The notes under the pieces: model-generated
The model's input: the letters and a program-made list of their open reading frames with translations, nothing else
Database searches by the model: none
Told to the model about the DNA's origin: nothing
In this document: positions 5,446 to 25,205 of the stretch, piece by piece
How positions within the stretch are numbered: position 1 is the first letter of the stretch
Layout of the letters: every line of letters begins with the position of its first letter
From: a plasmid
Length of the DNA stretch: 64,000 nt
Assembly (NCBI RefSeq): GCF_054482595.1
Contig: NZ_JBTHVH010000001.1
Reading direction: 5' to 3' (one strand)
Position numbers and translations under genes: made by a program

Positions 5446-6174
5446 ATGAAAGGCGAAGTGAAAGAGCGCGGCATGATTTTCAACGATGAGATGGTCCGGG
5501 CCATCCTCGAAGGAAGGAAAACGCAGACGCGGCGGATAATGAAAAATCAGCCTGCGGAAGTTGGTCCAGAAGCACCAGTGATGGTTAGAAAAATTGGTGC
5601 AGGTTTTCAGTGGTACGGGGCTGATGGTGTAAGCAGTGTTTTCAATTGCCCATTTGGTATCGTCGGCGATCGAATTTGGGTTCGTGAAACATGGGCGATA
5701 TTAGGCAATGAGGATGGTTGCAGTGTGGACTGGAACGACAACCTTTGTCGTGGCGATGAGAAGAACGCAGCAAGGATTTATCGGGCCAGTTGCGAGCAAA
5801 AACCTGGTGATTACGGCTTATGGTCGATACCCGATGATGCCGACTGGAAACCTCACACTGTGAATGAAAAGTTTGATGGTGGGTGGCGTCCATCAATTCA
5901 CATGCCGCGATGGGCATCACGCATTCTGTTGGAAATTACCAACGTGCGCGTTGAACGGTTGAACGATATCAGCGAATGCGATGCAAGGGCTGAGGGCGTT
6001 CCGCCTGCTGGAAGTTTGCTTCCTGATCACCCGGGAACATTCCTTACTCCCAAGGGGGATTTCGCAATGGCCAAGGTTGCGTTCCAGCGCCTGTGGGAAT
6101 CCATCTATGGTGAAGAAAGCTGGAACGCTAATCCCTGGGTGTGGGTAATCGAGTTTAAGCGCATTCAGGAATAA
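5446..6174 (+). CDS. ASCH-like domain protein (242 aa)
   Basis: N-terminal FNDEMVRAILEGRKTQTRR resembles ASCH/PUA-like motif; good SD. Confidence 0.5.
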   Translation: MKGEVKERGMIFNDEMVRAILEGRKTQTRRIMKNQPAEVGPEAPVMVRKIGAGFQWYGADGVSSVFNCPFGIVGDRIWVRETWAILGNEDGCSVDWNDNLCRGDEKNAARIYRASCEQKPGDYGLWSIPDDADWKPHTVNEKFDGGWRPSIHMPRWASRILLEITNVRVERLNDISECDARAEGVPPAGSLLPDHPGTFLTPKGDFAMAKVAFQRLWESIYGEESWNANPWVWVIEFKRIQE

Positions 6175-10709: not shown

Positions 10710-11084
10710 ATGATGACACTAAAACATTTTCTTGACCGCCCATTATGGGCGGCAGCCGCAGGCTATGACTTTAATTATATGGATTGCATGTCTTATACCG
10801 CCAATGCATACGACTATTCCTTCAGTCTGCTGCTTAATTCTTTAAGAATATTGCCGCAAACAGAAGTTGGAGAGCTTCATTTATGGCTATTGGGCTTTAT
10901 CGCGGCTGTCGTTGGTATTGCTGTATGGCCTTTTATTTTCTGGCTGGTGGCTGTTGTAGTGTGGTTTAAGTGCAAGACATACCGGAAAAAGTATTTCTTA
11001 GGTGATGGAATGACTGATATTGCCAAAATGAACATTGAAGAATGGACTAAGGAATGTGAAAAGAAATGGCGCAAAAAGAAATGA
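10710..11084 (+). CDS. putative membrane protein (124 aa)
   Basis: hydrophobic segment LWLLGFIAAVVGIAVWPFIFWLVAVVVWF. Confidence 0.5.
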   Translation: MMTLKHFLDRPLWAAAAGYDFNYMDCMSYTANAYDYSFSLLLNSLRILPQTEVGELHLWLLGFIAAVVGIAVWPFIFWLVAVVVWFKCKTYRKKYFLGDGMTDIAKMNIEEWTKECEKKWRKKK

Positions 11085-11923
11085 CCAGAATAACTGAAGA
11101 GCGCATATCAGAGATTATTTCCCGTATCGAAATGTATGGTCACGGTGCTGGATATACGGCAGATGAAGGATTGGAAATAGCCCAGCAGATGCTGGCCTTG
11201 AGACAAAAAGAGCAACATGAAAGTAATACGTGTAGATTGAATTTTGAGCATTGGCTGGAACAGCAACGCGGAAAAATCGATGTGGACTGTGGTTGTGTGT
11301 CCACTGAAACATTCATGCACTGGCTGTGGGTAGCTTACGAGGCTGGCAACTATCCGGATATTCCGGATAGTTCGGTGCCAGCGCCAGGAAAGGGCGTCAC
11401 CGGTGAACGTATCCGCATTAAGCCGCATGTTTATCGCGAACTGGTTAACCGTCTCCACGATACAGCGATCAAGTGTGCTGGCACCCAGCAATTACGAGAA
11501 AGAATTAGCCGTGTTTTGGGCGACGTTATTACACCAGATCATCATAAACAAGCCGAGAAAAGTGACCTGGAAAGGTGTCACCTTGAGGCGGCATTAAACA
11601 TTAAGCCGGGGCATACGCTTGGCATTATTGATGCACTATTGGTTCATAAGATGGCCAGGGCTTTATTGCCGCTGGTGGCTGAAAAAGAGAACGCGAGCCT
11701 CAAAAAAATGCTGTCGCGGGCGGAAAGGGAATTATCAGGCAAATTATTGCCAGAAGAACTGCCACCAGCAGATATACCAGATCGAGTGTCCCAGTGGATG
11801 AAGTCTTTTGGTTTGCCGTGGGAGGCTTTTTGGTGCTACGACCATCGCAGATGGTGTGATGAACTTGATAGCAATTTTCCCTACTTTGCGGAAGGGAACA
11901 CCTGCCCTCAATGCAGGGGATAG
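11066..11923 (+). CDS. hypothetical protein (285 aa)
   Basis: ORF; C-terminal CPQCRG Cys motif. Confidence 0.55.
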   Translation: MAQKEMTRITEERISEIISRIEMYGHGAGYTADEGLEIAQQMLALRQKEQHESNTCRLNFEHWLEQQRGKIDVDCGCVSTETFMHWLWVAYEAGNYPDIPDSSVPAPGKGVTGERIRIKPHVYRELVNRLHDTAIKCAGTQQLRERISRVLGDVITPDHHKQAEKSDLERCHLEAALNIKPGHTLGIIDALLVHKMARALLPLVAEKENASLKKMLSRAERELSGKLLPEELPPADIPDRVSQWMKSFGLPWEAFWCYDHRRWCDELDSNFPYFAEGNTCPQCRG

Positions 11924-12258
11924 CATTTGACGAAATCGATCACCCTATCCTGAACTTCAGAAAGAAGGTCTTTTTCACGCGCCAGGACGTCAGGATATTG
12001 ACGTTCTGGCCTTACCAGATGCCGGAGCTTCCCATTAAGCAGAATGGCCTCAGAAAACACTTTTACGCTGTGCTTTATCCCCTCTGTTTCACTTTTCAGC
12101 GTCAAAATAAAGCGCAATTGCTTATTAGCCTGATTCGGATTCAATACACGAATTTGCAGTTCGTCTATGCTGTTTCGCAATGGGATTGATGCCACCACAC
12201 TGGTGCAGTCTCTGATTGTCTGAATTGAACGGCTAACATTGAGAACGTTATTGTGCAT
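11908..12258 (-). CDS. hypothetical ORF (116 aa), uncertain
   Basis: Only minus-strand ORF in an otherwise plus-strand block; weak SD. Confidence 0.25.
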   Translation of the reverse strand: MHNNVLNVSRSIQTIRDCTSVVASIPLRNSIDELQIRVLNPNQANKQLRFILTLKSETEGIKHSVKVFSEAILLNGKLRHLVRPERQYPDVLAREKDLLSEVQDRVIDFVKCYPLH

Positions 12259-12290
12259 GTGCCTGATCCACTAACTCCTGGAGGTTTCTT

Positions 12291-12542
12291 GTGTCAGATC
12301 GAAATATAGCAGCTAAAAGCCAGGAAGAGCGAGACAAGGTGAACGTAGACCTTGCCGCCAGCGGCGTTGCTTACAAAGAACGGCTGAATATACCTGTGAT
12401 TGCAGAGCAGGTGGCCCGTGAGCAACCGGAAAACCTGCGCGCCTATTTCATGGAACGGCTACGGCACTACCGGCAGTTAAGCCTCCAGTTGCCAAAAGGG
12501 AGCGATCCGGTGTATCAGAACGAGGATGCACCAAAAAAATAA
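12291..12542 (+). CDS. hot: DNA polymerase III theta-subunit homolog
   Basis: [36 protein letters not shown] aligns with E. coli HolE; GTG start with GGAGG SD. Confidence 0.85.
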
Positions 12543-12629
12543 CGGCAAGATGGGGGAGAAATGTGATTAGCCCCCAGCGTGGCGCGCCTACAAACCCCGC
12601 TTTCACAAACTATGCCTTTTCAATGTATA

Positions 12630-12645
12630 CTGTATGAATAAACAG
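12630..12645 (+). promoter_or_regulatory. LexA (SOS) box upstream of humD
   Basis: CTGTATGAATAAACAG matches CTGT-N8-ACAG. Confidence 0.6.
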
Positions 12646-12665
12646 TATCATTGAGGTAAAACGCT

Positions 12666-13055
12666 ATGGGCTTCCCTTCTCCTGCGGCGGATTATGTTGA
12701 AAGCCGAATTTCTCTTGATCAGCAGATAATTAGACATCCTTCAGCGACCTACTTCATGCGGGCAGCTGATAGCCATCACCGTGAGGGAATATTGCAGGGT
12801 GCTTTGCTGGTGGTTGATTCCTCGCTTACTCCGGTTGATGGTTCTCTGCTTGTGTGCGCTATGGAGGGTGAATATCGCATAAAGAGATACAGGAAGTATC
12901 CGCGCCAGCACCTGGAGGACTTAAGCACCGGGAAGAAAGAGGCGTTACCAGTAGATGACGATGGATACACGGGCAGTAATGCTGTTTTTGGTGTGATCAC
13001 TCATGTCATCAATGATGCCCGAAGTGGGGAATTTGATGATTGTCCGGTTATTTAA
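12666..13055 (+). CDS. humD: UmuD'-like S24 peptidase-family SOS mutagenesis protein
   Basis: GFPSPAADYVE...HPSATYF... aligns with UmuD; 129 aa as P1 HumD. Confidence 0.85.
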   Translation: MGFPSPAADYVESRISLDQQIIRHPSATYFMRAADSHHREGILQGALLVVDSSLTPVDGSLLVCAMEGEYRIKRYRKYPRQHLEDLSTGKKEALPVDDDGYTGSNAVFGVITHVINDARSGEFDDCPVI

Positions 13056-13084
13056 GCTGCAAAGTGCTGGTGCTTTATGCCTGT

Positions 13085-13122
13085 GAAGTTTATAATTGTG
13101 TACACATAACGAGTACACGAGG
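13085..13122 (+). promoter_or_regulatory. phd-doc promoter/operator region
   Basis: TATAAT followed by palindromes TGTGTACACA and GAGTACACGAG. Confidence 0.5.
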
Positions 13123-13127
13123 TGTTT

Positions 13128-13349
13128 ATGCAATCCATTAACTTCCGTACCGCGCGTGGCAACCTTTCTGAAGTGCTCAACAATGTTGAAGCCGGGGAAG
13201 AGGTTGAAATCACCCGCAGAGGCCGTGAGCCAGCAGTAATTGTCAGCAAGGCTACTTTCGAAGCCTACAAAAAAGCGGCGCTGGATGCTGAATTTGCATC
13301 CCTGTTTGACACCCTGGACTCCACCAACAAGGAACTGGTTAACCGATAA
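13128..13349 (+). CDS. phd: Phd antitoxin
   Basis: 73-aa [17 protein letters not shown]... matches recalled P1 Phd; 1-nt overlap with doc. Confidence 0.9.
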
Positions 13350-13729
13350 TGAGGCATATATCACCGGAAGAACTTATTGCGCTTCATGATGCGAATATAA
13401 ACCGCTACGGCGGCCTGCCGGGAATGTCAGATCCGGGTAGGGCAGAGGCCATTATCGGGAGAGTTCAGGCCAGAGTTGCCTACGAAGAGATCACCGACCT
13501 TTTCGAAGTCTCCGCCACCTACCTGGTGGCTACAGCGAGAGGGCATATATTCAATGATGCCAATAAGCGTACCGCGCTAAACAGCGCGCTGCTATTTCTA
13601 CGCCGTAACGGGGTGCAGGTATTTGATTCACCTGAACTGGCAGACCTTACTGTAGGCGCTGCGACTGGCGAGATATCTGTATCTTCTGTCGCCGACACGT
13701 TACGTAGATTGTATGGTTCTGCGGAGTAG
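13349..13729 (+). CDS. doc: Doc toxin (Fic-fold kinase)
   Basis: 126 aa; Fic-like motif [11 protein letters not shown]. Confidence 0.9.
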
Positions 13730-13733
13730 ATTA

Positions 13734-13913
13734 ATGGCACGCAAATACAACAAATTGTCCCGTGAAGCGTTAAAGATGCTTCTTGATGGCGTGAGTCGCC
13801 GCAAGGTAAAGCAATACCTGGTTGGTAAGCAAATTGGAGTCAGGACCGCTATTGCTGTGTTATGCCGTCAGGAAATGGTTGTGCTTAAACAGAGAATGCC
13901 GGGCAGCAGATAA
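13734..13913 (+). CDS. hypothetical small protein downstream of doc
   Basis: ATG inside ORF-track ORF 13713..13913. Confidence 0.4.
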   Translation: MARKYNKLSREALKMLLDGVSRRKVKQYLVGKQIGVRTAIAVLCRQEMVVLKQRMPGSR

Positions 13914-13940
13914 AGCCCAATCAGTGATTAAAGGTGTGAT

Positions 13941-14984
13941 GTGAAAGCCGTAATTACTCCCTTTGTACAGAAAGAGCTTGGCCTCGCCACGTTCAAAGTG
14001 GATCAGGAGGTCAGAAAGCTGGTGGAGGCTGGCCGTAAATTTATTATGGAGCCGGTGCCGCGTGAGTTAATCGAGCACATGGAAGACGGCCTCGTTGTTA
14101 CCGAGCAAACCATGGCAACAAATGAGGCGTTGCAGCCGTTTTTTAACAGCGATGAACTGTTTCGCCGTATTGGTGGAATTGACGCGCTGGTGGCGTGGTT
14201 GCGTAGGAAAGAGAGTCAATGCCAGGCCGCAGATCGTAGTTGGTGTGACAACCATATTGTCCACGCTGAACGAGACAATAGCGCGGTGTTGTTGTGCTGG
14301 CATCACGATAACCATTACCGGATGCGTGGTTTTAATGAGCTGAAAGAAACGCTGCACAATAATCGCGTTAACTGGATACTGGATGTCGCCCGTCAGGAAA
14401 TGGGCCTTTCAAATAGCCATGATTTAAGTATTCAGGAGTTGTGCTGGTGGGCTTTCATGCGCAACATGATGCACCTGATGCCGGAAGAAGTCTGCCGCAT
14501 ATCAATAAATAAGATGAAGGCTACTCCGCAGGATAGCGGACCTCTGAAAGAGGCGGATATTCGCCCGTATGACGATCGCGCTACAGCATATGTTCAGATG
14601 ATGGAAGAACGCGCCGCGCCGATGCGTGCAAAAGTATGCCCTGTGGATGTTGACTCCGACCCTGGCATGGCGCATTTCAAAATACCAAAACTGCAATCGC
14701 TAAAATTACCTGAGTACATGGACTTTGTTGCTTCCCGTCCATGCTGTGGGTGTGGAGCGGCGGGAGCTGGCGCTCACATTACGCCTTATATCGTTCGTCA
14801 TAGTCGATTATGCGCGCATGACATTTACGCAATTCCTCTGTGCCAGTCATGCCAGCGTGATATTGAGCGTGACCGCGATAATTGGGAGAAGACGCACGGT
14901 AGGCTGGCGATGCATCAACGATTGTTCTTTGATTACGCGCTTGGAGTCGGCGCTATCACAAGTTACTCGTCGAGTGTTAGATAA
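13941..14984 (+). CDS. hypothetical Cys-rich protein (347 aa)
   Basis: ORF; C-terminal cluster CCGCG...CAHD...CQSCQ. Confidence 0.6.
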
Positions 14985-18308: not shown

Positions 18309-18438
18309 TGTTTTTTAACTACCGATGTTACATTGAACCTGACCTCTTGCGCCTTGAGGCATTTTCGGTTTATGCTTATCAGGCACCTCAGTAAAACGGG
18401 TGCCGGGATTGGCCTCCCGCTTAAGTCTAAGGCGATAC

Positions 18439-18462
18439 AGACGCCGCTCGCGTCTTTTTTTT
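18439..18462 (+). terminator. terminator-like hairpin inside the ant leader
   Basis: agacgc cgctc gcgtct followed by T7 run. Confidence 0.45.
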
Positions 18463-18479
18463 GTATCGGCGTACACGCA

Positions 18480-18600
18480 CACCTCTACAATGGTGGGCTG
18501 TATGGGGCTACCTTCGGGTAGGCTGGTTACCTTGGACGCCAGTAAGGCCAACTCCGTACAGTCCACCGCCAGCAAGATTGGTCTCTTCTGCGGTGGTTAC
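18480..18600 (+). ncRNA. candidate c4-like antisense RNA region (boundaries not resolved)
   Basis: UUCG-loop hairpin ggctaccttcgggtaggc; CCTTGGACG (18530..18538) near-complementary to GTCTAAGG at the icd SD. Confidence 0.25.
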
Positions 18601-24899: not shown

Positions 24900-25205
24900 C
24901 GGCCTCATGTACAGGTTTAACAACCTGCTATCCGCTGCTAAACGGGTGGCAGGACGTGACGGGGTTAGCAGACTGGCGTACATGAAACCAGCAGGCCGAA
25001 GCCTCCCCATCACGCCCCACCATAATTCGGGCGTAACGTGGTTTTACGGACACAAAAATACCGCAATATCGGATATCTGCGGTTGTCCGCATGTACATTC
25101 AGGCTGCTAAACCCGGTCGCAGAATTTGCTACGACGGCGGAACTATAAGCCTGAATGACAGGAAGATCAATAGTCTGGCGTTCAATGGTAGTATTTTTGC
25201 TCCAA
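24900..25205 (-). ncRNA. candidate c4-like antisense RNA region of second module (boundaries not resolved)
   Basis: Leader between operator and icd-like ORF; UUCG-loop hairpin gaggcttcggcct; sequence unrelated to forward-copy leader. Confidence 0.2.

Follow-up and report, generated by a model that had tools for sequence, protein, structure and literature searches.

The stretch of plasmid DNA analysed here, referred to below as the window, comprises 64,000 nucleotides of contig NZ_JBTHVH010000001.1 (NCBI RefSeq assembly GCF_054482595.1) and belongs to a P1-like phage-plasmid. Upstream of hot, which encodes a homologue of the theta subunit of DNA polymerase III, its block of plus-strand genes is interrupted between positions 11926 and 12290, and the interruption is occupied by a minus-strand open reading frame (ORF), 12258..11908, of 116 amino acids (aa) and 351 nucleotides (nt), beginning with ATG. 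The first-pass annotation of this DNA had given the same coordinates, strand and length, which agree with the ORF list of the window, and had left three options for the interval, namely a diverged gene, a regulatory region or a remnant. We call the ORF gene A and describe it as the first gene of a two-gene cassette, A-B, whose second gene is missing here. The elements of the locus on which the argument draws are the following.

11066..11923, plus strand: a gene of 285 aa, convergent with A and sharing its final 16 nt (11908-11923) with the 3' end of that gene.
11816..12378: a block shared with phages RCS47 and D6 at 99.3-99.7% identity, with left flanks that differ.
11908..12258, minus strand: gene A, encoding a phrog_2594 protein of 116 aa; a copy of the A-B cassette's first gene that stands alone.
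11911..12189, plus strand: a shadow ORF of 92 aa, antisense to A; not a gene.
12259..12290: the divergent spacer of 32 bp between A and hot; its plus strand bears the Shine-Dalgarno sequence (SD) of hot, GGAGG, and the SD-like elements serving A are weak.
12291..12542, plus strand: hot, 83 aa, GTG start, the DNA polymerase III theta subunit homologue (Pfam DNA_pol3_theta, E = 2.8e-33).
12303..12311, minus strand: a candidate extended -10 element for A (TGcTATATT), 45 nt upstream of the A start codon and within the first codons of hot; a weak match to the consensus.
12628-12647: the LexA box of the humD regulatory region, TACTGTATGAATAAACAGTA, upstream of humD; the sole LexA-box match in the 64-kb window.
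12666..13055: humD, followed by phd and doc.

The product of A matches phrog_2594 along its full length (E = 1.1e-46 by hmmscan against PHROGs, with residues 2-116 aligned to positions 1-115 of the 118 in the profile), and its N-terminal MHN... lines up with the beginning of the nearest relatives (MHNALNS.RSIQTIRDCT); the homology search that the first-pass annotation had named as a check on the ORF thus yields a clear homologue with a conserved start. The same 351-nt minus-strand coding sequence is annotated as a hypothetical protein in RCS47 (YP_009624953.1) and in D6 (orf106), the DNA of 11816-12400 being 99.3-99.7% identical to both phages. We find A in 143 plasmids of PLSDB, nearly all of them non-mobilisable P1-like replicons of ~90-100 kb, and in 104 of 5,426 complete E. 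coli genomes, each time as a single copy and in 101 cases on a plasmid. Among 37 copies of A from P1-like elements in IMG/VR, 35 are intact, one carries an in-frame deletion of four codons and one is frameshifted, and the alleles of P1-like elements differ by up to ~9% in protein. The polymorphisms of A, 23 synonymous (79 sites) and 21 non-synonymous (269 sites), give a ratio of non-synonymous to synonymous polymorphism (pN/pS) of 0.27, which departs from neutrality (binomial p = 1.9e-5), as compared to 1.47 for the antisense frame. Based on these data we conclude that 12258..11908 is a genuine minus-strand protein-coding gene under purifying selection, and neither spacer nor chance ORF.

As the first-pass annotation held, the plus strand of 11926-12290 contains no credible gene. 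The sole plus-strand ORF of at least 60 aa inside the gap, the 92-aa 11911..12189, has no homologues in Pfam or PHROGs, has acquired stops or lost its start in four of 34 P1-like alleles, and shows the pN/pS of 1.47 given above. GC and AT skew are both negative over 11800-12250, a flip that fits minus-strand coding; apart from it, the repeats and base composition of the region show nothing notable. The poor SD of the minus-strand ORF, also remarked on earlier, is confirmed, as the sequence preceding the ATG (...ccaggagttagtggatcaggcacATG) offers only weak GTGGA/AGG elements.

One could suppose that the interval is a non-coding promoter or leader of hot and that the ORF within it is fortuitous, as there is a weak plus-strand promoter-like sequence (TTGAAC-18-TATTGT, 12225-12254) 37 nt upstream of hot, and P1 has promoters, LPhot among them, in the corresponding region. 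However, protein homologues of A reach down to ~25% identity with the start conserved, the substitutions in the frame of A are biased to synonymous ones, and the -22 box of P1 late promoters was not found in 11,000-14,900. As a sole explanation the regulatory spacer is refuted and we regard it as barely credible; of the three options left by the first-pass annotation the diverged gene is the one that stands, the regulatory region falls as the only explanation, and the remnant holds in one sense alone, to which we return below.

A word-indexed protein search with A returned only relatives of at least 88% identity. Exhaustive phmmer comparison with 1.8 billion cluster representatives found 11 distant representatives, and a profile search brought together 124 proteins, recovering the window copy at E = 8e-38. 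Those of the 124 that carry an organism name are all from Enterobacterales (Escherichia, Pectobacterium, Pantoea, Yersinia, Dickeya, Photorhabdus, Xenorhabdus, Proteus, Providencia and others), and all are without a protein name. The family is marked by an N-terminal motif, R-S-[IML]-[QH]-T-I-x-[DHT]-[NCS]-T, by E70 and by P-x-x-Q-Y-P, which in the window protein read RSIQTIRDCT at residues 10-19, E70 and P84-x-x-Q87-Y88-P89, and the near-invariant residues R10, S11, T14, T19, E70, P84, Q87, Y88 and P89 are all kept in two alignments. By its full-length profile match and by its motifs alike, the window protein belongs to phrog_2594, our 'A' family.

What the family does cannot be read from its relatives, as A has no match in Pfam, NCBIfam, PADLOC or PDB sequences, and the defence models of PADLOC-DB v2 match neither A, nor two further A proteins, nor three B proteins. 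The alignment-based AlphaFold2 model of A has a predicted local distance difference test score (pLDDT) of 86.6 and a predicted template modelling score of 0.81 (the single-sequence model has a pLDDT of 61), and Foldseek searches with the A model against BFVD and PDB returned nothing significant. A falls into no known antitoxin family and shows none of the DNA-binding antitoxin folds considered, i.e., ribbon-helix-helix, helix-turn-helix, AbrB and Phd/YefM. Nor is it a GNAT acetyltransferase, for it has no sequence similarity to that superfamily and lacks both its complete fold and its acetyl-CoA motif A (Q/R-x-x-G-x-G/A), 116 aa being too small for a complete domain.

Outside P1-like elements A is rarely alone. 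In more than 100 such loci it is nearly always paired with a second gene, B, which lies directly downstream and encodes a protein of ~241-263 aa starting with MAPSL, MAPTL or MAPDL. The two genes usually overlap by 16 nt (for recognising a cassette a gap of up to 22 nt was also admitted); the overlap probably reflects translational coupling. We retrieved 80 viral loci via A, of which 44 are partnered, B being directly downstream in all 44; counted over the non-P1 viral loci found via A, this amounts to 44 of 45. An independent search for B, for which two profiles were made from sub-alignments because the full B alignment is too little conserved, found A immediately upstream in 64 of 64 evaluable loci. 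B itself has no match in Pfam, PADLOC or PDB, and a profile search of 5.8 billion proteins brought no annotation; a stretch of B that weakly resembles the GNAT motif A, of uncertain significance, reaches an hhalign probability of only 41% against an approximate sequence of E. coli RimI. The pair is found in a ~108-kb SSU5-like phage-plasmid of E. coli beside parA, in a P4-like island of Pectobacterium beside relB/parE, in a Proteus prophage, where it separates the tail genes from a cI-like repressor, and in a P2-like prophage after gpS. These four contexts are unrelated to one another, and the slots are typical of accessory ('moron') or defence genes. A-B is a self-contained two-gene cassette of prophages, satellites and other phage-plasmids, with A as its first gene.

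Most partnered cassettes also share what lies upstream of A, namely a sigma70-like promoter sequence, TTGCAA-17-TAGATT, followed by a leader of ~105-120 nt that contains four hairpins and ends in CGGCTAAGGTGGAAAC-ATG (for recognising a cassette the leader end was taken as GGCTAAGGTGGAAAC-ATG). The leader is conserved among cassettes even where their A proteins share only ~30-50% identity with the window protein, and in its hairpins P1 and P3 the pairing is kept although the sequences differ. Cassettes of the Photorhabdus/Xenorhabdus/Proteus type have a different sequence upstream of A. Rfam scans of the leader at gathering and E-value thresholds identified no family. Promoter and leader were seen at L058 3873-4003, at ~5880-6003 of both L005 and L015, and in L009, L014, L057, L061, L065, L070 and L079, and a conserved CGTAGCC segment of the leader has two possible, alternative pairing partners, GCTACG and a GGCTA that adjoins the SD. 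In a prophage contig of the Photorhabdus/Xenorhabdus type, Rfam places an sRNA-Xcc1 (RF02221, 74.8 bits, L091 2967-3050, minus strand) ~950 nt upstream of the A-B cassette.

In the window, and in P1-like elements generally, A stands without its partner. All 37 P1-like copies lack B and face hot across an identical 32-bp spacer. Searching the window by tblastn with four B proteins gave nothing below E = 0.01, and the 3' end of the leader, GGCTAAGGTGGAAACATG, has no match anywhere in the window with up to three mismatches. The sequence upstream of A is unrelated to the cassette promoter and leader, the spacer standing in the leader's place, so that of a complete cassette neither the downstream B nor the promoter and leader is present. 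Where the orphan ends, in KCYPLH*, there is still an overlapping ATG in the frame of B (MLSPAL... as compared to MAPSL...), which is consistent with B having been cut off just past the A stop codon, where the 285-aa gene now ends; read as a vestige of B, this ATG is suggestive only. Between the orphan and any A that has a partner, identity does not exceed 50%. We conclude that A in P1-like phage-plasmids is what remains of the cassette, B and leader being missing and A being kept intact by purifying selection, and for the gene and the cassette, taken by themselves, our confidence is very high.

Two further solo copies were found. A 93-kb metagenomic contig (L015; 1-844 and 6001-6399) has a complete A-B pair and also, at a distance of ~5 kb, an A of 132 aa standing alone, which has kept the conserved leader and is followed by a convergent gene; this is a second, independent orphaning event. 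On an AT-rich phage contig (L083, 3845-4312) a distant solo A of 155 aa with an N-terminal extension, without B and without leader, sits in an operon of genes on the same strand.

Given the losses at this locus, A might be a decaying and functionless relic of a cassette broken by recombination, surviving only because it is recent and in linkage with humD and hot. The locus has indeed lost B together with the cassette's own promoter, its leader and its strong SD, the remaining SD is weak and a clear promoter was not found, some copies are frameshifted, shortened or disrupted at the N-terminus, and in other P1-like plasmids the slot carries other cargo. Yet a functionless gene is hardly expected to show a pN/pS of 0.27 (p = 1.9e-5) against 1.47 in antisense, or to be intact in 35 of 37 copies among alleles up to ~9% apart in protein; moreover, all near-invariant residues of the family are retained and A is kept in divergent backbones (D6, RCS47 and many plasmids), even where hot has decayed. 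We consider decay improbable. It is the cassette that is a remnant, in that its B gene and 5' leader have gone, and not the surviving A, which is intact and under selection.

The slot that A occupies is known for its variability. The stretch from pmgT through upfM-O, hot and lxr to humD makes up 'region 8' among the eight hypervariable regions described for P1-like phage-plasmids (PMC9603915). In P1 the slot holds upfM/N/O and the late promoter LPhot, in other P1-like plasmids an 86-aa plus-strand gene or other cargo, and homology between the window and P1 resumes at 12297, codon 3 of hot. The block 11816..12378 behaves as an exchangeable unit in this hypervariable region before hot. A thus takes the same position as P1 upfM-upfN-upfO, between genes of the pmgT/U/V type and hot, an exchange hotspot for small uncharacterised genes; but its sequence is unrelated to theirs, and where P1 has plus-strand genes with LPhot, the window has a single minus-strand gene without it. 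A late-promoter -22 box like that of P1 (AAGTTACTT-like) was not found between 10014 and 14959, and LPhot has no counterpart there. The GGAGG SD of hot lies in sequence that is absent from P1.

Linkage between A and its neighbour is tight. In the complete E. coli genomes the hot allele that stands beside A (at least 95% identity) occurs in 105 records and A in 104, whereas the P1-type hot allele (80-90% identity) occurs in 259 records, all without A. Nevertheless, in D6 and many D6-type plasmids the DNA corresponding to 12379-12582 of the window is deleted (L002 3476-3622) and hot is cut to an ORF of 48 codons, while A is intact, which argues that A is not a simple passenger of hot.

The signals for transcription of the orphan are weak. 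A stricter promoter scan proposed none for A, and a terminator scan was likewise without a convincing signal for it; the candidate extended -10 element in the first hot codons is a weak one, and its stretch is retained in the D6-type plasmids that have lost most of hot. The first-pass annotation had seen no LexA box in 11926-12290, and rightly so, since the only one in the window is that at 12628-12647, where it overlaps a predicted humD promoter (TTCACA-18-TATACT, 12602-12631). It had also mentioned a LexA-regulated gene of P1 near this place. Such a gene exists: according to the P1 annotation lxr lies between hot and humD, and one LexA site is shared by the divergent lxr and humD. Like A, lxr is a minus-strand gene that adjoins hot within a plus-strand block, near the LexA box shared with humD; unlike A, it lies between hot and humD rather than upstream of hot and encodes a 190-aa unrelated protein (BLASTP of A with P1 Lxr gave no alignment at E <= 100, and A is no member of that family), and it is missing from the window. 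The remark thus refers to lxr of P1, a gene unrelated to A.

The absence of lxr nevertheless raises the thought that A has taken its place under SOS control, with transcription running leftward from the LexA-controlled humD/lxr region, antisense through hot, into A. The P1 annotation has a single LexA site in the shared lxr/humD control region, the box is conserved in the window, and without lxr A becomes the first minus-strand ORF of at least 60 aa to the left of the box, with no minus-strand terminator-like site in between; furthermore, the D6-type deletion brings the LexA/humD control region to ~150 nt from A. Against this, minus-strand promoter matches near the box are weak only, A has no similarity to Lxr, and the transcript would have to pass 250 nt of antisense hot. 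We hold this arrangement to be quite improbable; it concerns expression alone and would be compatible with any of the functional readings.

As to function, B was in no case met alone, whereas A repeatedly was, and A is small, lies upstream and overlaps the start of B, all of which points to A as the antidote-like and B as the active member of the pair. We propose, with a probability of about 40% for the statement as a whole, that A of P1-like phage-plasmids is the orphan first gene of the cassette, retained as an antidote or partner that acts in trans on B-type proteins. In this proposal the role of protector or partner would fall to A, and B would be the active subunit with a potential for harm; the orphan, transcribed possibly from the weak extended -10 inside hot or leftward from the humD region under LexA control, would keep the B of co-resident or competing prophages and plasmids in check, by binding and neutralising it or in some other way, and the phage-plasmid and its host would be shielded from the A-B cassette in an anti-addiction or counter-defence role.

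Solitary antidotes on phages and plasmids have precedents. Dmd of phage T4 is one antitoxin-like protein that serves in counter-defence. Orphan antitoxin-like enzymes of T4-like phages neutralise DarTG1 (bioRxiv 10.1101/2024.07.11.602962), and orphan antitoxins and anti-addiction have been reviewed (PMC7354431). With these A shares the state of a small partner gene standing alone on a mobile element whose relatives lie upstream of, and overlap, a larger partner; it shares the asymmetry by which the partner is never alone and the small gene often is, and the maintenance of the lone copy by selection. It departs from them in that A and B are outside known toxin-antitoxin (TA), defence and immunity families and that A is without the usual antitoxin DNA-binding folds, and any neutralisation here is presumed. 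The full cassette likewise recalls type II TA operons, such as the phd-doc pair 0.9 kb downstream, in having its own promoter, a small first gene and a larger, overlapping second gene, and in residing in accessory slots of prophages, satellites and plasmids. However, its long structured 5' leader is unusual for such operons, B (~250 aa) is larger than typical toxins, neither gene has a family match, and the window holds the first gene only. To go one step further and suppose that A-B is an unrecognised TA-like or abortive-infection cassette under a novel leader RNA, whose antidote would have been domesticated by ~30% of the hot-bearing P1-type E. coli plasmids against rival elements, seems to us unlikely at present.

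Several points weigh against an antidote acting in trans. The toxicity of B and its binding by A are both what we infer from the genes and their arrangement. Neither A nor B matches a known toxin, antitoxin or defence family, and no DNA-binding fold of the antitoxin kind can be recognised in A. The orphan has lost the cassette's promoter, leader and strong SD, and a convincing promoter was not found, so that expression of A is a prediction. Partnered A proteins reach no more than 50% identity with the orphan, for which no B is known to be the cognate one, and cross-neutralisation is hence uncertain; the solo A in the phage operon of L083, which has no B, suggests that a role independent of B is possible. 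In addition, a minority of the database entries are shorter gene calls of A, including C-terminal fragments of 69 aa, which suggests that some copies are disrupted.

Some of these points lead to another view, according to which A has an activity of its own, for example as a regulator or by attaching to some factor of host or phage, and B is an accessory or modulating partner; its intrinsic function might possibly be tied to the replication and SOS genes hot and humD. It would account for purifying selection on an orphan whose element has no B, and for the distance between the orphan and every partnered A, with no cognate B known. The other solo copies, in the phage operon of L083 and with its own leader in L015, are in keeping with it, as is the tight linkage of the orphan to one hot allele, and RSIQTIRDCT, the motif conserved best, and PxxQYP resemble a functional site more than a mere partner interface. 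On the other hand, the pairing of A with B, usually overlapping, in more than 100 loci that are not P1-like indicates that the primary role of the family involves B, no similarity to a characterised enzyme, regulator or inhibitor was found, and A is intact where hot is truncated and hence does not depend on it. We regard autonomy as possible, if somewhat doubtful.

By the measure of what was already on record, A is ordinary, a gene annotated as a hypothetical protein in a hypervariable region described by others. What our analysis adds is that it is the orphaned first half of a widespread, undescribed two-gene cassette, that selection maintains this orphan, which roughly 2% of complete E. coli genomes carry, and that the full cassette comes with an unusually conserved promoter and a structured leader outside Rfam. 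If the orphan does serve as an antidote, then P1-like phage-plasmids, which are relevant as vectors of extended-spectrum beta-lactamase genes, are armed against a new module of TA-like or defence-like kind, and with the A-B pair conflict between mobile elements could be tested in a simple system; if the cassette is TA-like and its antidote has been domesticated, this would be a natural example of mobile-element warfare carried by phage-plasmids. Should the antidote proposal be wrong, what is left is still a cleanly delimited, uncharacterised protein family with a confident structural model.

A few observations concern the surroundings of A. The convergent 285-aa ORF, 11066-11923, is a mosaic of phrog_21459, phrog_3797, PHROGs 60 and 924 and others, and all that RCS47 and D6 retain of it is its last 108 nt (11816-11923), an unannotated remnant. 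In the GenBank/RefSeq records of other plasmids a short gene that ends in this 11816-11923 segment is named 'antitoxin PHD', which looks like a misnomer. Farther along the window Rfam identifies an isrK RNA at 18383-18460, C4 antisense RNAs at 18486-18573 (plus strand) and 24942-25027 (minus strand), and a c4-a1b1 target element at 25096-25148 (minus strand), and the window thus holds two C4-type immunity RNA loci in one element.
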